A DNA stretch of 64,000 bases, taken from the sequence record KC295538; one strand, given 5' to 3'. Positions 832 through 54,706 of this stretch are shown here, in pieces; the first letter of the stretch is position 1; every line of letters starts with the position of its first letter. A program made the translations under genes and the position numbers. The stretch comes from Escherichia phage PBECO4. The notes under the pieces were generated by a model that did no database searches, was not told the DNA's origin, and saw only the letters and a list, made by a program, of their open reading frames with translations.

Positions 832-860
832 ATAATACTGCTATTATTCAGTACTGTCAA
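832..860 (-). promoter_or_regulatory. sigma70-like promoter TTGACA-N17-TATTAT (CAGTACTG overlaps -35)
   Basis: minus-strand reading ttgacagtactgaataatagcagtattat; upstream of ORF 429..737. Confidence 0.45.
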
Positions 861-1150
861 TCGATATAAGTACCTTTTTTAACATCACAGACTTCTTCCA
901 TCCAATGTGGATTTTCGTTTTTATCAGTGAAGATTTGTTCTGCTTCTTCTTTTGTTTCAGCTAGGACAATACGATCCCCTTCATCCAAATCACGGATACG
1001 ATACACTTTCAGTTCTTGTTTCTTCTCAAGAATATTACACAGTTCACGTGCTTTTTCTTCATCGCACTTCCCTTCATTAGCATAAAACCAAATTGCTTTT
1101 TTAATAAGGTCACGTTCTTCTTTAGAAAAAGACATAATATTTCCTATCAT
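857..1150 (-). CDS. hypothetical protein
   Basis: 97-aa ORF; consensus promoter upstream at 1181-1208. Confidence 0.5.
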   Translation of the reverse strand: MIGNIMSFSKEERDLIKKAIWFYANEGKCDEEKARELCNILEKKQELKVYRIRDLDEGDRIVLAETKEEAEQIFTDKNENPHWMEEVCDVKKGTYID

Positions 1151-1180
1151 TTGTTAAAGTGGATTTCGTTTGATATAAAC

Positions 1181-1208
1181 ATTATACAGTACTGATATCT
1201 TATGTCAA
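1181..1208 (-). promoter_or_regulatory. sigma70-consensus promoter TTGACA-N16-TATAAT with CAGTACTG abutting -10
   Basis: minus-strand reading ttgacataagatatcagtactgtataat. Confidence 0.55.
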
Positions 1209-1304
1209 GTATTAATCACCAAAAATCATCAGATACCCAAACCAACCCACACAGACGACTAAGCTAACAATACCAAAGACAATCTCTAAAGTCATGTTGT
1301 ATCC

Positions 1305-1523
1305 TTAATCAATGATTTTATATTCACGATGACCATAGAATCCAGCCTCAAGGATGCGATTGCCATCAGCATCTTCCAAGTCCCAACCACGGGATGTTTC
1401 GGCAATAATAGTCATGATGTGACCTCTTGGGAAAATCCCACTCAGAGTGGATACATCCTCAAGTAATTGAACTTTCTTTCCAACATTGGAATTCGGTTTA
1501 AACATTTTATGGCCCTTATTCAT
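1305..1523 (-). CDS. hypothetical protein
   Basis: 72-aa ORF. Confidence 0.4.
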   Translation of the reverse strand: MNKGHKMFKPNSNVGKKVQLLEDVSTLSGIFPRGHIMTIIAETSRGWDLEDADGNRILEAGFYGHREYKIID

Positions 1524-1698
1524 TGATCACATCAAGTACTTTATCCAGCTTTTTACCAATGCTTTCCTTTGGTTTCTCACCATTCTGGAATACATCAGAA
1601 CTGCAATACTCAGGACGCGTATTAGGAAACTTCTCGTTCATCCAGGAGTGACCGTAAACACCCAGCATGATGCCAACGATAAGAATGATAATTTGCAT
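1516..1698 (-). CDS. small membrane protein
   Basis: 60-aa ORF with N-terminal hydrophobic helix (IIILIVGIMLGVY). Confidence 0.35.
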   Translation of the reverse strand: MQIIILIVGIMLGVYGHSWMNEKFPNTRPEYCSSDVFQNGEKPKESIGKKLDKVLDVINE

Positions 1699-1713
1699 GA
1701 TAATTTCCTCTGA

Positions 1714-2502
1714 TTAAATGTTAGTAGTATAGTACTTGATTTCGTTTTGAATTGCAAGTTCTATTTGTTTATTGAAAAGAATTCCAAACTCTTTGATTGA
1801 TTCACAATCGAATTCAATAGAAAAAGTATACTCTGGTATACGTACATTGTCAATACCCAAATACTCTTTTATGTAAATTTTAATGAGTTCACATAGTGCA
1901 GTACTAAGACATTGAATTTCAAAATGTTTTGCACCTTTGTCAAAATACTTGAATGCATCAATATCACCTACAATAAAACTATTCTTTAATGTAGTGAATA
2001 GGTTCTCAGGAAACACGGTAATAGGTGACATTGATTTAAGAATGTATGTATCTTTGGCATTCTTAATGTACTCAATGAAGCAGTAGTTAACGTCAGGCTC
2101 GATTGAACGATCCGCGTTATGATACCAGTGTTTAAACTCACTGTATTCAGCAAACTTATGCTGGCGTAATGCGTTACAATCTTCACACAGTGCAGTCATG
2201 TTCTCTTTATCATTACCGCCCTGAAGACAGTCAAGTACATTATGGTCTAACGTCATGCGTACAAGGCGTTTCCCTTTAAGTACATAAGGTCTGAATTTAT
2301 AACGTTCTTTAGTACTGTGCTTATGTAAAGTGAATACCACATTGGATTCACCACAACAATCACATTTAAAGCCATCACGTGACATTACATGAATGAGTTT
2401 TCGAGTATTTGGACCAAACTCTGATTTGGTAATGTTACCTACAATTTCTGATGGTTTGTAGTATTTTGAATTCCGGCGAATCAATTCATCTATAGTGCTC
2501 AT
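1714..2502 (-). CDS. HNH-family endonuclease (possible homing endonuclease)
   Basis: 262-aa ORF; Cys cluster CDCCGES then HNH-like motif DHNVLDCLQGGNDKENMTALCEDCN. Confidence 0.6.
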   Translation of the reverse strand: MSTIDELIRRNSKYYKPSEIVGNITKSEFGPNTRKLIHVMSRDGFKCDCCGESNVVFTLHKHSTKERYKFRPYVLKGKRLVRMTLDHNVLDCLQGGNDKENMTALCEDCNALRQHKFAEYSEFKHWYHNADRSIEPDVNYCFIEYIKNAKDTYILKSMSPITVFPENLFTTLKNSFIVGDIDAFKYFDKGAKHFEIQCLSTALCELIKIYIKEYLGIDNVRIPEYTFSIEFDCESIKEFGILFNKQIELAIQNEIKYYTTNI

Positions 2503-2503
2503 T

Positions 2504-2734
2504 TTATATTATTCCTTCTTTGTTACAACCTATAATTATTTTTGTAACTTCGATAACTCGTACCAAATGATATCCGTGAAAAAAGTTAAAACCATACATT
2601 TGTGCTAATGCATCGGCTTCAGATTTTGCACGGATACATGATAGATATAATTCTCGTATATCACCATCTAATGATGCTTGTTTCTCGTCATTGATAACAA
2701 TAGCACGAATCTCAAAACGAACACCATAACTCAT
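2504..2734 (-). CDS. hypothetical protein
   Basis: 76-aa ORF. Confidence 0.4.
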   Translation of the reverse strand: MSYGVRFEIRAIVINDEKQASLDGDIRELYLSCIRAKSEADALAQMYGFNFFHGYHLVRVIEVTKIIIGCNKEGII

Positions 2735-2940
2735 TTAGTTTGACCCACAATAAGTTTCTCTTTAGTATTACTATTGTAACACCACATTTGTTCTTTACTA
2801 ACTGTAATCCAAATATCTTTGTTTACTTGTTCGTATGTACTATCACGTAATGCAATGCATTGATTCATGGAATTCATTGGGGTTATTTGTACACCGGAAT
2901 TAACAGAAAAAGCTATTACTAAAAAGATTACTGAATTCAT
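2731..2940 (-). CDS. hypothetical secreted/membrane protein
   Basis: 69-aa ORF; hydrophobic N-terminus. Confidence 0.4.
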   Translation of the reverse strand: MNSVIFLVIAFSVNSGVQITPMNSMNQCIALRDSTYEQVNKDIWITVSKEQMWCYNSNTKEKLIVGQTK

Positions 2941-3557
2941 TGGATATTCCTTAATGGTTAATCATCCATCTCTTCGAGATGTCTGTTCGCTTCTAATACT
3001 ACGTATTCTACGCGAATGATTAATAACTGTCAAGGACTTTTAATATTGACGGGATTTGAGGAAGGGATTTTTCTTCCCCCCCACAAGGAGGGAAATTTGA
3101 CGCTGATGGTATCAGAGCTATTGCATTGAAGATTACTCATAACGAGTGCGAAAGCGGGTCATCCTGTTTCTCTCTACTTCAGTTTCATATGACGGTCTAC
3201 ACTTTTAAACATAGTGTATCTTCATTAAGTATCTATGCAATCAAATACTTAATGTGAGTACTCAAATTCTGGACGCAACTTTCCTGTACAAAATTTGATA
3301 ACTCTCCCTTAGATAATTCGTAAGGTGTTATCCTTATATGTCTATCAAGGAACCACCAGCTATCCTAACGTGGTTCTTTATACAGCCGCATTGCCGTGAG
3401 GGGTTCAAACTATGCCCACATCTAACGGGTTTCTTTTGCTGTTCGCACTGTCGGACTGCTCAACTGCCCTCTACGTTTTCGAGTGGATCAGGTACATGAA
3501 TATCATGCCAACAGAATTGTACAAGATAATTATATCACAAACTTTTACTTCATCCCA
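2941..3557. other. ORF-poor, locally GC-richer region; candidate structured RNA or regulatory region
   Basis: about 620 nt with no convincing ORF on the coding (minus) strand; composition visibly GC-richer than flanks; several short hairpins (e.g. gaaccac...gtggttc at 3347-3375). Confidence 0.3.
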
Positions 3558-3590
3558 TAAAAAAAGGTTGGCTTATGCCAACCTTTTTTC
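3558..3590. terminator. bidirectional intrinsic terminator hairpin
   Basis: aaggttggc-ttat-gccaacctt flanked by A-run and T-run; immediately 3' of sigma-factor gene. Confidence 0.6.
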
Positions 3591-3591
3591 T

Positions 3592-4557
3592 TTAGAAATC
3601 TTCGTATTCGTACCCTTTTGCAAGTACTAGCTTCTTAAGCTTTTGCATAGCTTCACTGTACTTTCGGTGTATTGATGAACGGGATTTAACATATTTTCCA
3701 TTATCATCAACAAAACCATTATCAGCAATCTCACGAAGCGTTTCAGGTTCATATTCACCTAGACCATGAACACGCTGGATAATCTCACGTTCTTTAGTAC
3801 TCAATTCGTTGGTCAGTTCATTGATAGCATAACGCAAAGGTGCACGGATACTATCAACATTGAGGTTAAAATCAGAAGCAGGTGAATGAATAATGTCACC
3901 TAATGTACCATCTGTAACACCGTCTAATGGTGCATCCAGCGAAGTGTATTCGCTTTGAAATAACAAACAATTATTAACATGCTGAATCTCAATCCCAGTA
4001 CCCTCTGAGATTATTTCAGGAGTTGGGCGAACACCATGTTTACGCATATATTCCTGACAGAATCTTTTTACTTTGATCTTATGAACACTCATATAACGTG
4101 GGAAGTGTACCATATAGTTAGCGTCAGAACTTTCGTTATAGACTGTCATGTAAATACTAGAAGAAGCATAGGTAATGAACTTAACATTCTTATTAAGATC
4201 AAAGGTTTTTAGTGCTCTCATGAACCCCTCAACACCATATGAAATCTTATCTTCAAATGGGATATAACAAGTACATTTACTTGCTACATCAATAATCAGT
4301 CCATAATTGTAACGAACTAACAGTTCAGTGTTTTTCTTTACATTGATACCAGCTTGAATATCACGAATTAGATCTTCATTGGAAACATTTGGTGGTCGCT
4401 TAAGTGTAATATTATATTTGAAACTGCTTTGTACTTTACCTTCATTTTCATCTTTATCTTCAACGAAATCTAAGGCTTCTAGTGTGTTGACTTCTTCATT
4501 AGCAAAACATTCATCCAGAACTTCTTCGGCAATTGTATTTAAATCAAGCTTTTTCAC
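3592..4557 (-). CDS. sigma-70 family RNA polymerase sigma factor
   Basis: 321 aa; region-2-like GVEGFMRALKTFDLNKNVKFITYASSSI and region-4-like HTH EREIIQRVHGLGEYEPETLREIADNGF...SRSSIHRKYSEAMQKL. Confidence 0.8.
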   Translation of the reverse strand: MKKLDLNTIAEEVLDECFANEEVNTLEALDFVEDKDENEGKVQSSFKYNITLKRPPNVSNEDLIRDIQAGINVKKNTELLVRYNYGLIIDVASKCTCYIPFEDKISYGVEGFMRALKTFDLNKNVKFITYASSSIYMTVYNESSDANYMVHFPRYMSVHKIKVKRFCQEYMRKHGVRPTPEIISEGTGIEIQHVNNCLLFQSEYTSLDAPLDGVTDGTLGDIIHSPASDFNLNVDSIRAPLRYAINELTNELSTKEREIIQRVHGLGEYEPETLREIADNGFVDDNGKYVKSRSSIHRKYSEAMQKLKKLVLAKGYEYEDF

Positions 4558-4578
4558 TTACATCTCCTAATGACGAAA

Positions 4579-5076
4579 TCAAAATCGATATACATTAATA
4601 TTATCATCTGTGAAGCAATCATGGTTGTGCACATCCATGAAAGTACTAAACACTTTATCATATAAAGTTGTATGTTCTTCATGAATAGCAGCATCTAGCA
4701 TGTATTCTCCACCACTTCCCATAAAGAAAGTGTAGTCTTCATGTAGATATTCAAGTTTTTTAATAAACTTTCCTTTAGTTAAAATCATATGAATAACATA
4801 ATCTTTAGAAAGAAGCACACAATGGCAACTTAACTTTCTGTCAGGTATAACTGGTACTTTATTAATTAACCAATCCAGTACTTTATCAATTTCACTTACT
4901 ACCCCACTAGCACTGAATAAACGGTCATGTACATATAAAGTTTTTTGATTAACAACTCCATATTGATATTTTGGTCTTAGTGGGAAAAAACCAAATAAGT
5001 TTCGTGGTATAGTTGACGTAACTCTAGAATCGGTAATCAATAAATTTAATCGTTTATCAATATAAACAGTTGTCAT
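4579..5076 (-). CDS. hypothetical protein
   Basis: 165-aa ORF. Confidence 0.5.
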   Translation of the reverse strand: MTTVYIDKRLNLLITDSRVTSTIPRNLFGFFPLRPKYQYGVVNQKTLYVHDRLFSASGVVSEIDKVLDWLINKVPVIPDRKLSCHCVLLSKDYVIHMILTKGKFIKKLEYLHEDYTFFMGSGGEYMLDAAIHEEHTTLYDKVFSTFMDVHNHDCFTDDNINVYRF

Positions 5077-5077
5077 A

Positions 5078-5497
5078 TTAAACCTTATCTAAGAATTTAT
5101 CGTATATATAAAATTCTTTATCGGTGAATACATTAATTCTAGTATCGAATCTTTGCATTGTGTTCATATACAATGAACTTTTTAAATAAAAATACAAAGC
5201 AACAAATTCTGATATATGCATATTCTTTTTATTGTTACATAAATTCTTAAGCATTTTGATGCTATCAAATTCTTTTTCATCAAATCTGTATTGGTAAAAA
5301 TTGTATCTATTGGAACGGCACTCATAGATACGAAGTGCCATTATATCAATACATGCTTTAGATTTACAGTACTTATTCAATACGTCATAATCACCCGTAC
5401 ATAATGCTACAAAGATTTTATGTGCGAGTGTAGCTTTGCCTTCAATCGTATAATAGCCAAAAAATTTAATGATTAAGTACTGAATGAATGTAATCAT
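5078..5497 (-). CDS. hypothetical protein
   Basis: 139-aa ORF. Confidence 0.5.
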   Translation of the reverse strand: MITFIQYLIIKFFGYYTIEGKATLAHKIFVALCTGDYDVLNKYCKSKACIDIMALRIYECRSNRYNFYQYRFDEKEFDSIKMLKNLCNNKKNMHISEFVALYFYLKSSLYMNTMQRFDTRINVFTDKEFYIYDKFLDKV

Positions 5498-5502
5498 TTG
5501 AT

Positions 5503-5763
5503 TTAGAATTTCTCCGAAATTACTAGAGTGTCATCATAATCTTCTGCAATATCATGAAGAACTTTTAAGTTACTTTCACCAGAAACGCTTTTTACTTCGT
5601 TCAAAAGATAGTTTAGATCAACTTTAGTTACTTTTTCTGAATCAAACACACAGAAAGTTAATTCAGCGTTTGGACAGATCTTCTTCAGATTATCAGCAAC
5701 AACTTGTTTGAAGTTGAAAGATGGGGAAGCAACCAGGTTAACTGCAACGAGAATAGATTTCAT
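5503..5763 (-). CDS. hypothetical protein
   Basis: 86-aa ORF. Confidence 0.45.
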   Translation of the reverse strand: MKSILVAVNLVASPSFNFKQVVADNLKKICPNAELTFCVFDSEKVTKVDLNYLLNEVKSVSGESNLKVLHDIAEDYDDTLVISEKF

Positions 5764-5837
5764 AATGTTTTCCTTTTTAGCTGATAATTAAATTAGGAGC
5801 ACATTGTACTCCATATTATTTGTTATGTCAAATACTT

Positions 5838-6089: not shown

Positions 6090-6148
6090 AAGTTCCTTAC
6101 TCTAATTTGTTTTTAACAAAATAATTATATATAACATACTAAATTATG

Positions 6149-6574
6149 TCAAGTATTTTTAGTACCTTCTTCTGCCATTTTTGTGATATACCAATTAAGT
6201 ACTGATTTGTGTACCATAAAAAATGTGAATGCAAATATAGCAATAGCTGCTGATGTAACACTATTAGATAATGACCCAAGTTGGATGTTAGTACCTAAAA
6301 TAACAATAAATGGATACAACACAATCAATCTACTGTAAGGTTCGTCTCCAGTATCACGGAGAAATCCAAGCCTTTCATGATCAGTATCCATAGTGACAAT
6401 TGGACAGAACATAAGTGCAGACATAAGAGCAATACCAATTTGTGCTACATTGGAAATTGTAAACCACAAAGGATTTAAACCATATGAAATATTATTTTCT
6501 GTACAGTAGTAACCAAACGAATTGAATGCACAAACTAAAAATACAAAAATACAAATCTTATTATAGCCTCTCAT
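6149..6574 (-). CDS. hypothetical membrane protein
   Basis: 141-aa ORF; multiple hydrophobic segments. Confidence 0.5.
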   Translation of the reverse strand: MRGYNKICIFVFLVCAFNSFGYYCTENNISYGLNPLWFTISNVAQIGIALMSALMFCPIVTMDTDHERLGFLRDTGDEPYSRLIVLYPFIVILGTNIQLGSLSNSVTSAAIAIFAFTFFMVHKSVLNWYITKMAEEGTKNT

Positions 6575-7453: not shown

Positions 7454-7494
7454 TTTCCATCCCCCTTGGGTTACTTGGTGTGTTAATTATAATA

Positions 7495-7971
7495 CTAAGA
7501 ATCTTTGTTGTCAAACTTTTCCCTCAAATATTTTTCTATTAATCTAATTTGTGTTGGTGGTAAGATAAAGTAATCGTACATAGATTTACTACCATGTATC
7601 GAACAACCTACACTAATACTATAATCATATGGATATAAGTATATTGGATCTTGTATATCAGGTATGAAAACTATTCTTGATATATTACCATTTCCTATTC
7701 TTACTTGGACGTTATCATTATTATTAAGATAATTTCTTATACAGTACTCAATTATACCATTTACTTTAGAATCATAACCATAATTTTTATATTCAGGAAA
7801 AATGAAATAGCGTTCATGGTATAGATATGAGCATAGTAATGCTGGGAAAAAATTCCAAAAACCTTCATGCTTTGCAATTGTTTGTGCATATTTAAAATGA
7901 TTAGCATTACTAAAAATATTATACAGCACAAAATACACAAATGGACTTACCAATAACACTATTGTTAACAT
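7495..7971 (-). CDS. hypothetical membrane protein
   Basis: 158-aa ORF; N-terminal hydrophobic helix. Confidence 0.5.
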   Translation of the reverse strand: MLTIVLLVSPFVYFVLYNIFSNANHFKYAQTIAKHEGFWNFFPALLCSYLYHERYFIFPEYKNYGYDSKVNGIIEYCIRNYLNNNDNVQVRIGNGNISRIVFIPDIQDPIYLYPYDYSISVGCSIHGSKSMYDYFILPPTQIRLIEKYLREKFDNKDS

Positions 7972-9237: not shown

Positions 9238-9353
9238 AAAAACACCTCATTATTCATTCACTACATGATAACACCAAATCATACACCAGTCAAGCTCATT
9301 TTTTGGATATGCATAATAAATACGTTATAATAATTATACCAATGGAGGGATAA

Positions 9354-10508
9354 ATGTCAAGGTCAATTGCTGCGGCTGGACGCTATAAGTTTGGTGAATG
9401 TGGTTATGTTGTTGATGGTGCAATCCTCAATGATGGAACTAGACTAAAAAATATTAGAATCTATCGCCAAAGAAGCCATAGATTATATGATTTAGTTGAT
9501 CCAAGAACTAATATAATATATCGTAAAGTACAAATAACAACTAAAGATAATAAAGGTTATCTATTAAATTACAATAAAACTAATGACCAACTATTAAGTG
9601 AAATTAATAAAAATTGTTTCTTTGTTCGTGGATATTCTGAAGAGCCACAAGAAACTGATACTGGATTTGTATATAAATTCATGCTACATAAAACAATTTT
9701 AGGTAGTTCACAAACCTTGTATCATATGTATACACCTGAATGTGGTATTATAGATCGTGATATAGATAATATTCTCATTTCACCAGTATTTGTTGGTAAT
9801 GACTCAATTAGTGGTAAATTATTCAATACTGGTTCAGAAATTGATACTAACGGTATGGTAATAACAATCGTATTACCAGACGGAACAGAATACTTTACTA
9901 CCCAATTTGTTAATGATGCATTTACAATTCCAGTTGATGTTATCACACAATCAGGAAAAGGTACTGCTACACTCACTTCTCCATATTATAACACTAAAGT
10001 GGTGGAATTTGATGTTCTTGAAAGTGGTGAGGATATTGATTTTGTTACATCAGTTCTTCTATCCCAATTTGAACCTGTTTCGGAAGGTGTATTTTCTGCG
10101 GTTGTTCCATTTGATGTTCATGATCGTGGACAGTACTTAGCACTTCAAGCATACAGTGGTGACTTATATCAAGTTGGTGTAGATCTTTCTGTAGACGCAG
10201 AAGGTAATATTACTGTGTATCAAACTGATAATTTACCTGTTTCTTTGAGTATAATCGGAAAAACACTGCATACTACTCCTTTCCATAAAGAATATACTTT
10301 AAGTGAGTGGGTTCTCGGTGAAGACTCTATGTACTCTATCTCGGTTCCAGTAACTGAACATGGTAAAGCACTACCACAAGTTCAATTATATTCTTCAGAC
10401 AATCATGTAGTTCATAGTGAAATACAAGTGGATGAAGATGATAATGTAATTCTTAAAGTAGTAGAACCGCTTGACTGCTCAGTCGTAATAGTTGGTTACA
10501 ACGCATAA
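9354..10508 (+). CDS. hypothetical protein (lone plus-strand gene)
   Basis: 384-aa ORF; GGAGGG RBS 6 nt upstream; terminator hairpin immediately downstream. Confidence 0.6.
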   Translation: MSRSIAAAGRYKFGECGYVVDGAILNDGTRLKNIRIYRQRSHRLYDLVDPRTNIIYRKVQITTKDNKGYLLNYNKTNDQLLSEINKNCFFVRGYSEEPQETDTGFVYKFMLHKTILGSSQTLYHMYTPECGIIDRDIDNILISPVFVGNDSISGKLFNTGSEIDTNGMVITIVLPDGTEYFTTQFVNDAFTIPVDVITQSGKGTATLTSPYYNTKVVEFDVLESGEDIDFVTSVLLSQFEPVSEGVFSAVVPFDVHDRGQYLALQAYSGDLYQVGVDLSVDAEGNITVYQTDNLPVSLSIIGKTLHTTPFHKEYTLSEWVLGEDSMYSISVPVTEHGKALPQVQLYSSDNHVVHSEIQVDEDDNVILKVVEPLDCSVVIVGYNA

Positions 10509-15826: not shown

Positions 15827-15916
<90 letters not shown>

Positions 15917-15928
15917 AGAAGTAAGATA

Positions 15929-16029
<101 letters not shown>

Positions 16030-16165
16030 GCCAAGAGTCGGCATAGGTGCAGCACTACAAAGTTCTTCAAGCTGCTTGGCAGTTTCTTCACTTACTTTCA
16101 TATTGACCTCGTTAGATTAAAACCCCCAGTTTTCTTCTTGAACCATAATACACCCCATTCAATGA

Positions 16166-16204
<39 letters not shown>

Positions 16205-16261
16205 GTATTCTACAGCGACCATTTTAGCTAAAGGTGAACTGAGCATACTCGAAGTACCTCT

Positions 16262-16929
<668 letters not shown>

Positions 16930-16944
16930 TTATACCTCGCATTG

Positions 16945-17104
<160 letters not shown>

Positions 17105-17107
17105 GTA

Positions 17108-17233
<126 letters not shown>

Positions 17234-17242
17234 GTAGTATTT

Positions 17243-17602
17243 TCAGAAAAAAACCTTATTCAACACTTTAATTATCACAGAATTTAATTCATGTGGGAAC
17301 ACATTTTCATATACTGTGCGTTTCTGAAATTCATCTTCTTCATCAGCACTTAGCTGGAAGGTAATGTATTGAGCATTTATACTATTTATTATATCACGTA
17401 AAGTGTTATTTGTCCTTTTTATTTCTTCAAATGATTCAAAAACAATTACATCGTCATTTATAATAAATGATTCACCATATTCATTGAAAATGCGAATTCC
17501 AGGATTATCTTTACACCAGTTATTGGTATGGTCTGTTGTTAATTTTGAATTCAAAAATGATTTAAGAAACTCTTCATACTTTGAAATGTCTTTAACACTC
17601 AT
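17243..17602 (-). CDS. EExxFxQxST-motif family paralog
   Basis: C-terminal SADEEDEFQKRTVYENVF. Confidence 0.5.
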   Translation of the reverse strand: MSVKDISKYEEFLKSFLNSKLTTDHTNNWCKDNPGIRIFNEYGESFIINDDVIVFESFEEIKRTNNTLRDIINSINAQYITFQLSADEEDEFQKRTVYENVFPHELNSVIIKVLNKVFF

Positions 17603-17964
17603 ATCACCAACTTTAATTAAAAAAATGGATGGTGACGCTTTTAAACGCCGCTGTTAATTCAGCTTTATAACCACCCGTTTTAACTTACCTTTCGGCTACC
17701 TTGACGTGGGGCGTACAGGCTACTAAAAGCAACTTCTGTAAACATATTTCCACGCCTTACCCTTTTAAATAAAAGTCCATCCGGTTTTCCAGTTTGGTGA
17801 AGGACTTTCACCTCTAGTTTCAACCTGCTAGTCAAGTAATAATTGCCTATCGTCCAATTATCAAACCCGTCTAGGTTAACATTCACCACTTCCTAGAGTA
17901 CCAGAGATCTTGTTCTGGTTAGCATCGACGTAACTTACACCATATACGTCTGATTGTGGAATTC
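17603..17964 (-). ncRNA. candidate structured RNA or long 5' leader (alternative: 69-aa GTG-initiated ORF 17680..17889)
   Basis: GC-richer than flanks, directly downstream of consensus promoter 17965-17993; hairpin ggtgaa-agtcc-ttcacc; only ORF needs a GTG start with an RBS-like AGGAA abutting it. Confidence 0.3.
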
Positions 17965-18002
<38 letters not shown>

Positions 18003-18035
18003 ACAAATCTGGACGTTCATCTTTAAACATATTAA

Positions 18036-18059
18036 TATCCTCAGTACTGAATTATTTAG

Positions 18060-18063
<4 letters not shown>
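18036..18063 (-). repeat. 23-nt promoter-repeat copy 2 (poor -10)
   Basis: plus-strand cagtactgaattatttagtcaag; TTGACT present but no good -10 at 16-18 nt spacing. Confidence 0.45.
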
Positions 18064-18473
<410 letters not shown>

Positions 18474-18481
18474 CTTTTTTT

Positions 18482-18645
<164 letters not shown>

Positions 18646-18649
<4 letters not shown>

Positions 18650-18810
18650 GTTCGTACCATTATTTCAATAAAGAACCACGGATACGCTTCATGGTTTATA
18701 AGTTTATCGTATTCTGCTGGGTCTGACATGATTTCCCAATGATACTTTCTCCAGTTACCGAAACCTGCATATCTAAAATTAATGTCATTCATCCATTCTT
18801 CATGCGTCAT
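18646..18810 (-). CDS. MTHEEW-family small protein (copy a)
   Basis: 54-aa ORF by manual translation; MTHEEWMNDINFRYAGFGNW...WFFIEI; AAAGG RBS upstream. Confidence 0.45.
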
Positions 18811-18814
18811 GGTT

Positions 18815-18916
<102 letters not shown>

Positions 18917-18920
18917 ATTT

Positions 18921-19036
<116 letters not shown>

Positions 19037-19053
19037 ATGTGATGTCCCATTAT

Positions 19054-23943: not shown

Positions 23944-24058
23944 TTTAATACCCTTTTATTTCTTTTTTATGAAAAACCCTCATCATTGAGGAATGGTTTG
24001 CATTTTAATATCTGCCGATAACAAACATTATATCACAATATCTGTTCTTGTCCAATTT

Positions 24059-54614: not shown

Positions 54615-54667
54615 TTGAATTCCTTATCATGTCTCTTTGTCATAAAACATTGTATCACCAATGTTTT

Positions 54668-54706
54668 GTTTGTCTCAAAAAAAAAATATCGGAACAATTT
54701 GTCCCG
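54668..54706 (-). terminator. terminator-like hairpin
   Basis: 10-nt A-run (plus) then tatcggaac-aatttg-gtcccgata (one mismatch). Confidence 0.45.

Follow-up and report, generated by a model that had tools for sequence, protein, structure and literature searches.

A 64,000-nucleotide stretch of the genome of Escherichia phage PBECO4 (sequence record KC295538), here called the window, carries on its minus strand, at positions 3592-4557, a gene for a protein of 321 amino acids that is almost certainly a genuine sigma-70-family factor. From the promoters of the window and of related genomes we tentatively propose, with slightly less than even confidence, that this protein reads a lineage-specific DNA box through a region 4.2 helix-turn-helix (HTH) interrupted by a hairpin, and that it occupies the middle position in a cascade of three sigma factors, with a regulon that includes an undescribed family of non-coding RNAs (ncRNAs). 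The full model, in which control would pass from the host sigma70 to the phage sigma factor and from there to a gp55-like factor, is one towards which the sequence evidence leads us to lean slightly.

Identification of the sigma factor

The reading frame starts with a GTG codon (4557-4555), ends with a stop codon at 3594-3592 and is preceded by a Shine-Dalgarno sequence, AGGAG, at positions 4564-4568 of the minus strand, 6 nt 5' of the start. In the alignment, the homologues share the N-terminal sequence MKKLDLN with the window protein. A preliminary description of this DNA had given the same coordinates and length, and these stand; the strand, which it did not give, is minus.

The same description had called the product a full-length sigma-70 family factor and had named a search with hidden Markov models (HMMs) for regions 2 and 4 as the check that could overturn this assignment. 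Both regions were detected when the search was run, and regions 2, 3 and 4 were all borne out by HMM, by structure prediction with AlphaFold2 (AF2) and by Foldseek. In Pfam, Sigma70_r3 was matched well above its cut-off (37.8 bits vs 25.3), and the scores of Sigma70_r2 (23.0 vs 24.0) and Sigma70_r4 (23.8 vs 24.1) fell just under theirs. The Sigma70_r4 match spans residues 251-279 only, and an insertion in the HTH starts five residues further on, at 284. The whole protein passed the NCBIfam cut-off for the sigma-70 superfamily (TIGR02937, 44.7 bits vs 42.9), and the best partial NCBIfam matches were RpoD_Cterm (E = 6e-25) and then RpoS (1.6e-19). PHROG_351, "RNA polymerase sigma factor", matched with E = 2.6e-60, and a phmmer search against the PDB matched 58 sigma chains, the top one being RpoD (5.4e-17).

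The AF2 model, built from 27 homologues, contains confidently predicted sigma2 (about residues 50-148), sigma3 (154-205) and sigma4 (237-315) domains, with a predicted local distance difference test (pLDDT) of about 85. The N-terminus (1-49) and the linker 222-236 are disordered, and the predicted template modelling score (pTM) is low (0.37), as expected for a free multi-domain sigma factor. The top 50 Foldseek matches in the PDB were all sigma70-family sigma chains, almost all of them within RNA polymerase (RNAP) complexes, with sigmaS 5ipl_F as the best (E = 1.8e-11). Region 2 is thus identified by TIGR02937, by the AF2 sigma2 domain and by conserved equivalents of F419, F427, T429, Y430 and N383; region 3 and the region 3.2 finger by Sigma70_r3 and by a stretch, SLDAPLDGVTDGTLGDII, that aligns to sigma70 SMETPIGDDEDSHLGDFI; and the region 4 HTH, despite its Pfam score, by the confident AF2 sigma4 domain. 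Taken as a whole, these matches lie far outside what chance would give.

Within the family, the protein falls outside group 1, that of the primary sigma factors: it scored 88 bits against the 354 needed for the RpoD_Cterm equivalog and 64 against 555 for PRK05658, neither Pfam r1_1 nor r1_2 matched it at E ≤ 1, and W433/W434, Q437 and T440, which are invariant in that group, are replaced. The closest structural and profile matches are to the bacterial group 2 factors of the RpoS type, with which it has in common the domain set (1.2-like, 2, 3 and 4), a length of about 320-330 residues and the lack of a long region 1.1 or a non-conserved insert. This likeness is one of fold and domain set: the equivalog cut-offs are all far missed (rpoS_proteo, 70.5 bits vs 378.7), and, unlike the group 2 factors, the phage protein has an eight-residue insertion in region 4.2 and has replaced the W433/W434 dyad, Q437, T440, H455 and E458. 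A clear sigma3 domain sets it apart from group 4 extracytoplasmic function (ECF) factors and from two-domain proteins like phiEco32 gp36, and it does not belong to the T4 gp55 family, the search of PHROGs having returned phrog_351 only. The names "RpoD" and "RpoS" that GenBank records give to this gene are therefore over-specific. The protein is 24% identical to Escherichia coli sigma70.

Residues conserved and replaced in the phage protein

The N-terminal peptide (residues 1-18) is conserved and is followed by an acidic linker and a region-1.2-like segment at about residues 54-78. On the minus strand, the sigma2 domain (residues 79-148) is encoded by nucleotides 4114-4323, the sigma3 domain (154-205) by 3943-4098 and the sigma4 domain (237-315) by 3613-3849. 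The sigma finger 3.2 occupies residues 206-236, and the eight-residue insertion in the HTH turn of sigma4 (DDNGKYVK) residues 284-291.

We aligned the phage family to residues 373-613 of E. coli sigma70, whose sequence was checked to be identical to the PDB chains. The equivalents of N383, F419, K426, F427, T429, Y430 and P453 are conserved, and E420 and R423 are replaced by D and K. In sigma70, the flipped -11 A is received in a pocket made up of the group around Y430, and the residues involved in this flipping are retained in the phage protein (F119, D120, K123, K126 and Y130, corresponding to F419, E420, R423, K426 and Y430). The sigma finger motif SLDxPxxxDxxxTLxDxI is also conserved with respect to E. 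coli sigma70. By contrast, the phage protein has lost the sigma70 residues that recognise the base at -12, the TG of the extended -10 element and the -35 element in its upstream half. W433/W434 are replaced by S/S in the window protein, and small residues are found there in all phage members; R436/Q437 are replaced by Y/M in the window protein and retained as RQ in Munch, BF and CBB; and further replacements in the window protein are T440 to Y, R441 to N, V454 to R, H455 to Y and E458 to V. The region 2.2 motif Q406-E407-x-N409 reads S-Y-x-V.

The insertion in the turn of the region 4.2 HTH is present in all phage members, with a length of eight residues (ten in Munch), and was modelled by AF2 as a short beta-hairpin (282-290) that links helix 274-280 to the recognition helix (293-313). 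In this recognition helix R584 is retained (R293), and E585, R586, R588 and Q589 are replaced by S, S, H (H297) and R (R298). Several features are specific to the family, namely the highly conserved N-terminal peptide MKKLDLNxIxxEVLDECF with its acidic linker, a conserved ISYGVEG motif in region 2.2, the fixed length of the HTH insertion and an acidic C-terminal tail, KGYEYEDF. Between genera the sigma factor is 36-45% identical, as compared with 74-81% for the DNA polymerase, and it evolves far faster than the replication core.

Class M promoters and a family of non-coding RNAs

Genome-wide promoter and motif counts were made on the complete genome of phAPEC6, a collinear relative. Three promoter classes were found: host-type promoters (class E) and T4-late-like promoters (class L), both described below, and a class that we named M, with the consensus TGrGACAA-N11-rTGmTATAAT (r represents A or G, and m represents A or C). 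The starting point for class M was the sequence TGAGACAA-N11-GTGATACAAT, common to two replication-gene promoters and spotted by eye, and a position weight matrix (PWM) was then built from eight sites. Scanning of phAPEC6 with this PWM gave 22 sites, all of them on the coding strand and with exact spacing, as compared with 0.3 in shuffled sequences. The sites precede the gyrB-like gene, the DnaB/primase-helicase gene, the DNA-polymerase operon, the gene for the single-stranded DNA-binding protein (two sites in tandem) and the Clp ATPase gene, as well as the tRNA cluster, the gp55-like gene and four ncRNA genes. This is the distribution that a sigma factor of the middle tier would call for, with a promoter class of its own before middle genes and before the late-factor gene.

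In the window, all on the minus strand, the top-scoring class M site lies at 54649-54677 (TGAGACAA-N11-GTGATACAAT), upstream of a gyrB/topoisomerase-II-like gene. Another, at 3529-3557 (TGGGATGA-N11-GTGATATAAT), stands right after the terminator that closes the sigma operon, and we regard it as a candidate target of the phage protein; a third, at 19021-19049 (TGGGACAT-N11-GTGATATAAT), precedes the tRNA cluster; and a class-M-like promoter is found at 24027-24055 (TTGGACAA-N11-GTGATATAAT). The tRNA cluster comprises six genes at 15838-19010 of the minus strand, lying among strong host-type promoters and the one class M promoter.

Less directed approaches were not productive. When k-mer enrichment was repeated on the 102 upstream regions left after removal of those with class E or L promoters, only ribosome-binding sites and terminators were recovered, and stratifying -10 matches by the quality of their -35 elements was uninformative. 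The papers on phages CBB and GAP32 describe a "divergent RpoD-like" motif, TGAAACG...TATA, upstream of DNA-synthesis genes and of the gp55-like gene of these phages. No pattern emerged when the window was scanned for TGAAAC(G), the box of the CBB type, as Asteriusvirus uses a different sequence; class M is the Asteriusvirus counterpart of the CBB and GAP32 motif.

The class M promoter behind the sigma gene lies in a gene-free stretch (2941-3591), in which we also identified the conserved structured core of an unannotated ncRNA at 3299-3497 of the minus strand. The family has four paralogous members in each genome, and a class M promoter directly precedes every one of them; the other copies in phAPEC6 lie at about 151330-150882, 229946-229684 and 285674-285202. 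The core is 78-93% identical in nucleotide sequence across genera (CBB, Erwinia phage Kaldavass and Xanthomonas phage XbC2), and the sigma factors of the same three phages are only about 31-36% identical to that of the window. Compensatory double changes occur in 12 of the 37 base pairs that RNAalifold predicted from eight copies. A search of Rfam with the gene-free stretch gave no match, only terminator look-alikes below the threshold. The family may correspond to the ncRNAs detected by RNA-seq in phage PA5oct (PMC7318152). About 450 nt downstream of the gene-free region lies an HNH endonuclease gene (1714-2502, minus strand; PHROG_35175, 2.9e-188).

Comparison of the M-box with the recognition helix

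To the whole-genome set of Asteriusvirus we added, from each of three other lineages, a sample of about 43 kb surrounding the DNA-polymerase gene, and compared the M-box, matched only on the coding strand in every lineage sampled, with the region 4.2 helix at the position of sigma70 residues 583-591 (TRERIRQIE). In Asteriusvirus the box is TGrGACA, followed by the -10 element TG(A/C)TATAAT (20 sites in the whole genome), and the helix reads SRSSIHRKY. The Munch-type sample has the box TGGGACA with the -10 element TGATATAAT (9 sites) and the helix SRTSLHRCY; the RaK2-type sample has CTGAACA, also with TGATATAAT (5 sites), and the helix VRGTLHYKF; and the BF/CBB-type sample has TGrAACG with TGGTATAAT (9 sites) and the helix SKATLSRRY. 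Despite an overall identity of only 38%, the sigma factors of Asteriusvirus and Munch have the equivalents of R584, H588 and R589 in common, as well as the box. The RaK2 and BF/CBB lineages differ in the recognition helix and in the box alike. Across these four lineages, the M-box tracks the recognition helix of the phage sigma factor.

The ncRNA unit provides a natural control, being preceded by TGGGAyrA (y, C or T) in Asteriusvirus and fEgEco12 and by TGAAACr in CBB, XbC2 and Kaldavass. Since the box varies with the phage lineage and the hosts are all Enterobacterales, with region 4.2 of their sigma70 taken as conserved, the reader of the box should be phage-encoded. A comparable 42-kb sample of phage PA5oct, which has no sigma gene, contained no recurrent box class. 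We infer that the phage sigma factor binds the core RNAP and reads the M-box, and this reading predicts that specificity resides in residues R293, H297 and R298 of the recognition helix, facing positions of the TGrGACAA box.

Promoter classes E and L and the gp55-like gene

Oriented k-mer enrichment over the 236 upstream regions of phAPEC6 recovered classes E and L. Class E consists of host-type promoters and includes a cassette repeated at 325-343 kb of phAPEC6, A-tract-GTACTTGCA(A/T)-N16-TATAATGTTTTACATC, in front of about 20 tiny open reading frames (ORFs); its 3' part comprises a GGGGA...TCCCC hairpin in the 5' untranslated region and then a ribosome-binding site. Relatives of this cassette, CTTGACTAAATAGTTCAGTACTG(T)ATAAT, are found in the window at about 17233, 17993, 18063 and 18472.

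Class L has the sequence (A/C/T)TAAATA, which matches the T4 late consensus, and precedes the genes for the major capsid protein, the portal, the baseplate and the sheath by 33-60 nt. ATAAATA is concentrated in upstream regions, which hold 29 of its 54 genome copies. Promoters of the TATAAATA type are the known target of gp55, as is also stated in the CBB paper (PMC5259590). The gp55-family gene of phAPEC6 is gp237c (155118-155957; PHROG_234, 8.4e-18), which adjoins genes for gp46/47-like recombination nucleases, and directly upstream of it, at 156043, is a class M promoter, TGGGACAA-N11-GTGCTATAAT. A local search of phAPEC6 with a sigma-family profile found no second ORF of the sigma70 type. 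In the window, the sequence (A/T)ATAAATA also occurs at about 51144, 57648 and 59643 of the minus strand, 18-36 nt upstream of starts in the replication region, including that of the topoisomerase-II-like gene, and some middle genes may thus have late promoters as well.

Operon and early expression of the sigma gene

Nearly the whole window is a single minus-strand gene array, in which the sigma gene is the last of a predicted four-gene operon. The operon is closed by a strong intrinsic terminator hairpin of 14 bp at 3559-3590 of the minus strand (folding free energy -19.5 kcal/mol, z = -6.1). An A-tract and a U-tract on its two sides make it potentially bidirectional, and the equivalent terminator is already annotated in the relatives G17 and UE-S1.

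Strong host-type promoters were defined as matching at least 11 of the 12 positions of TTGACA-N16-18-TATAAT. There are 29 of them on the coding strand of the window and one on the other, as compared with 4.9 on both strands together in shuffled sequences. A simple window-wide promoter scan showed no enrichment (97 found, 105 expected), and it is the top-scoring, strand-resolved subset that is informative. In the 4.8 kb that precede the sigma gene there are four co-oriented host-type promoters on the minus strand. The nearest, at 5803-5831, is TTGACA-17-TACAAT. Those at 6124-6152 (TTGACA-17-TATAAT) and 7486-7514, 1.6 and 3.0 kb upstream of the sigma start, match all 12 consensus positions, as does the one at 9333-9360, which has in addition an extended -10 TG and heads the array that holds the sigma gene. 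No M- or L-type promoter was found upstream of the sigma gene in the window. The same arrangement, with only host-type promoters upstream of the sigma gene, was observed in UE-S1, fEgEco12, RaK2, Munch and CBB; in Munch, TTGACA-17-TATTAT lies 77 nt upstream of the start codon. Because consensus host-type promoters stand upstream of it, we infer that the sigma gene is transcribed early by the host sigma70 holoenzyme, under putative early promoters that are conserved in six lineages. The CBB paper places the sigma gene among the early genes (PMC5259590).

Between the nearest early promoter and the sigma gene lie two genes to which no function was assigned (5078-5497 and 5503-5763, minus strand) and, directly upstream of the sigma gene and predicted to be co-transcribed with it, a gene of 165 codons at 4579-5076 (minus strand) for an HslV/proteasome-beta-like N-terminal nucleophile (Ntn) hydrolase. 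Neither Pfam nor a sequence-profile search against the PDB matched this protein; its fold came from AF2 (pLDDT 86.9, pTM 0.78; an Ntn-hydrolase fold of the HslV/20S-beta/connectase type) and from Foldseek, which matched HslV 6kui_A with E = 7.5e-6. Thr2 and G120-S121-G122 are invariant, and the homologues are limited to the phage clade. This gene and that of the sigma factor are neighbours in Asteriusvirus, in RaK2 (46% identity) and in Munch (29%), though not in CBB, where an Xre-type HTH gene lies two genes upstream of the sigma gene. That the hydrolase would act on the N-terminal peptide of the sigma factor or on host sigma70, and so time the switch, is a speculation to which we give little credence.

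Proposed cascade and alternative explanations

In the cascade that we favour slightly, the only sigma-70-family factor of this 121Q/PBECO4-type jumbo coliphage, which has no RNAP of its own, would be made early by the host sigma70-RNAP from class E promoters. It would then bind the host core RNAP and steer it to class M promoters (TGrGACAA-N11-rTGmTATAAT), which would drive the genes for replication and nucleotide metabolism, the tRNA cluster, the four ncRNA copies and the gp55-like gene. The gp55-like factor would in turn act at the (A/C/T)TAAATA promoters and drive the late, virion genes. The preliminary description had suggested a role in middle or late transcription; the middle part is the better supported, by the class M promoters, and the late part is made unlikely by the presence of a separate gp55-family factor and of T4-late-like promoters before structural genes.

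Several observations weigh against reading of the M-box by the phage sigma factor. The -10 element of class M is a textbook host-type extended -10 (TGnTATAAT), and the phage protein lacks the residues that read such an element (E458, H455, Q437, T440 and W433/W434 are V, Y, M, Y and S/S), so that for the -10 half host sigma70 with an activator is the simpler explanation; the GACA core of the box, with a 16-nt spacer, could itself be a weak sigma70 -35 element. The co-variation of box and helix rests on four related lineages, and a separate, co-evolving activator would give the same pattern; only one sample of 42 kb stands behind the PA5oct control; and the literature search found no transcriptomic, genetic or biochemical data on the sigma factor in any relative. 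We also considered whether the -13 base follows region 2.4 (IYM vs IRQ), but for the Munch type G was predicted and A observed, and the idea was dropped; a weaker lead is that the equivalent of V454 is Glu in the BF/CBB lineage only, which uses TGGTATAAT. A serious rival, though one that we consider rather unlikely, is an appropriation of the T4 kind, in which host sigma70 would read class M promoters through the extended -10, a MotA-like phage activator would bind the box at about -33, and the phage sigma factor would serve other promoters or supplement or replace sigma70 at host-type ones. T4 middle promoters combine a sigma70 -10 element with a box near -30, which is the layout of class M; among the hundreds of genes of the genome with no assigned function there could be an activator, and the Xre-type HTH gene near the sigma gene of CBB is of interest in this respect. 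On the other hand, such a scheme would leave the phage sigma factor without a class of its own, as only classes E, M and L were found and L is gp55-like; the box co-varies with the region 4.2 helix of the phage sigma factor and is missing from the sample of the relative that lacks this factor; and no AsiA-like ORF was found below E = 0.04 in a local phmmer search with a T4 AsiA sequence, which is a weak test.

It is very unlikely that the phage sigma factor directs the late (A/C/T)TAAATA promoters before the structural genes, alone or with the gp55-like protein. Apart from the earlier proposal of a middle or late role, this idea could draw on the concentration of ATAAATA in upstream regions; yet promoters of the TATAAATA type are the target of gp55, the genome has a dedicated gp55-family factor beside gp46/47-like genes, as in T4, and the sigma gene lies in an early operon and the gp55-like gene behind a class M promoter. 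Still more improbable is that the protein is a decoy or competitor that titrates the host core RNAP or a host regulator, or that the gene is decaying. The loss of canonical DNA-reading residues, including the W433/W434 dyad, and the Pfam scores just under the cut-offs for regions 2 and 4 would fit such a fate, but the gene is intact in all the relatives examined, including Ecwhy_1, the N-terminal peptide, the ISYGVEG motif, the sigma finger and the fixed-length HTH insertion are strongly conserved, and the pocket for the -11 A and the finger have been kept.

The proposed cascade has parallels in known systems. In phage SPO1 (gp28 and gp33/34), the host sigma factor is followed by an early-made middle sigma factor and then by a late factor encoded behind a middle promoter. 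The logic proposed here, as read from sequence alone, is the same, with the gp55-like gene behind a class M promoter; the host and the proteins, however, come from lineages unrelated to those of SPO1, and the late factor of the jumbo phages is a member of the T4 gp55 family. With T4 itself the phages have in common T4-like core genes, a gp55-family factor beside gp46/47-like genes, TATAAATA-like late promoters and, in class M, a sigma70-type -10 element with a box near -30 to -35; unlike them, T4 has no full sigma70 homologue, and the M-box differs in sequence from the MotA box. The sigma factors of phiEco32 (gp36) and Salmonella phage 7-11 are small, ECF-like, two-domain proteins of podoviruses of roughly 77 kb. 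They resemble the window protein in being phage-encoded sigma-70-family factors of enterobacterial phages; the latter differs in having sigma3 and the finger, in matching the RpoD and RpoS models best, in its HTH insertion and in being accompanied by a gp55-type factor. The phiEco32 and 7-11 factors are described as binding the host core RNAP and switching transcription from early host-type promoters to phage middle or late promoters (PMC8948821).

In place of vague "phage promoters", the analysis gives a named promoter class of about 22 sites and a list of targets, and natural variants of the box and the helix exist in the RaK2-, Munch- and BF/CBB-type phages. If correct, the cascade would be the timing mechanism of jumbo phages without an RNAP, would explain the early, middle and late scheduling of 350-kb phages such as 121Q, RaK2 and CBB, and would enlarge the structural repertoire by a sigma factor whose HTH is, unusually, interrupted by a hairpin.

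Relatives and annotation of the sigma gene

A 3-kb query around the sigma gene matched 19 records of jumbo phages, about 310-375 kb long, with 98.5-99.9% identity. Among them are Salmonella phage SD-2_S15 and Escherichia phages 121Q, phAPEC6, G17, UB and Sharanji, and the records examined belong to the genus Asteriusvirus. The window protein is 99.4-99.7% identical to its counterparts in 121Q, phAPEC6, G17 and UB. More distant homologues, with 36-45% identity, were found in RaK2, Munch, BF, CBB, GAP32, fHe-Yen9-04 and Xanthomonas phages, and the gene was present and intact in every relative examined. At the gene level it does not differ from the annotated sigma genes of Asteriusvirus and of the RaK2-like "group 2" jumbo phages (among them Sharanji RpoD, RaK2 ORF244, CBB_513 and that of GAP32). 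The ORF is labelled "RNA polymerase sigma factor" in many relatives (e.g. 121Q gp167 and phAPEC6 gp066c), and the product names in GenBank vary between RpoD, RpoS, FliA and hypothetical protein.

The preliminary description had set the gene against T4, with its small factors, and had considered a full sigma factor unusual on these grounds. Neither point holds: the window matches Asteriusvirus jumbo phages, in which a complete sigma factor is known, annotated and usual, and reviews regard such a factor as a hallmark of jumbo phages without an RNAP of their own. In the literature searched we found no functional study, promoter-class assignment, residue-level analysis or experiment on this sigma factor. 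The gene itself is already known. In PA5oct-type phages, which share the replication core with Asteriusvirus, tblastn gave no match to the sigma gene even at E ≤ 0.01, and the published promoters of these phages are host-type (PMC7318152).

It is important to mention that a paper of 2026 (PMC13070987) described phage Ecwhy_1 as lacking the fEgEco12 sigma factor altogether ("completely absent"), which would make Ecwhy_1 a natural knock-out. We rejected it as such, since positions 859-3659 of MH791411.1 carry the region with 98.6% identity and the gene is annotated there as "similar to RNA polymerase sigma factor"; the reported absence is an artefact of comparison or annotation.

The AGTACT motif and palindrome counts

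The preliminary description had also suggested that the sigma factor could recognise a family of promoters containing CAGTACTG. This sequence is indeed massively over-represented, with 26 copies in the window (0.58 expected) and 198 in phAPEC6 (4.5 expected), and some of the copies do lie within promoters. In phAPEC6, however, the copies are evenly distributed, 175 of the 198 (88%) are inside coding sequences, and the flanking positions have zero information content. What surrounds the 23 intergenic copies is only an ordinary pair of sigma70 -35 and -10 elements, whose spacer holds the motif (TTGACT-N9-CAGTACTG-TATAAT), and CAGTACTG is a perfect palindrome and hence directionless. The suggestion thus fails, and we rejected CAGTACTG as a promoter family; that the sigma factor recognises it is hardly credible.

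The count of the 8-mer CAGTACTG is fully accounted for by its 7-mers, and the true signal is therefore the hexamer AGTACT, the ScaI site, throughout the genome. AGTACT occurs 138 times in the window and 918 times in phAPEC6, where 101.5 copies are expected (9.0-fold); it is enriched in all three reading frames, is mostly intragenic and lies in the spacer of 22 of the 108 strong promoters. It is 6- to 9-fold enriched in the RaK2-, Munch- and BF-type samples and depleted in PA5oct (3 copies vs 14.4 expected), so that the enrichment is common to the lineages that bear the sigma gene, a point in favour of a connection with the latter; the extension to CAGTACTG is strong in Asteriusvirus and the RaK2 type only. 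Taken together, AGTACT is a genome-wide DNA feature and not a promoter family.

Among the 64 six-base palindromes AGTACT is the sole outlier by excess in phAPEC6, the next being enriched 1.5-fold. Some palindromes are wholly missing from the same genome, namely CCATGG (0 vs 47.9 expected), AGGCCT (0 vs 23.7), AGCGCT (0 vs 16), CCCGGG and CCGCGG, which, in contrast to the excess of AGTACT, is classic restriction-site avoidance.

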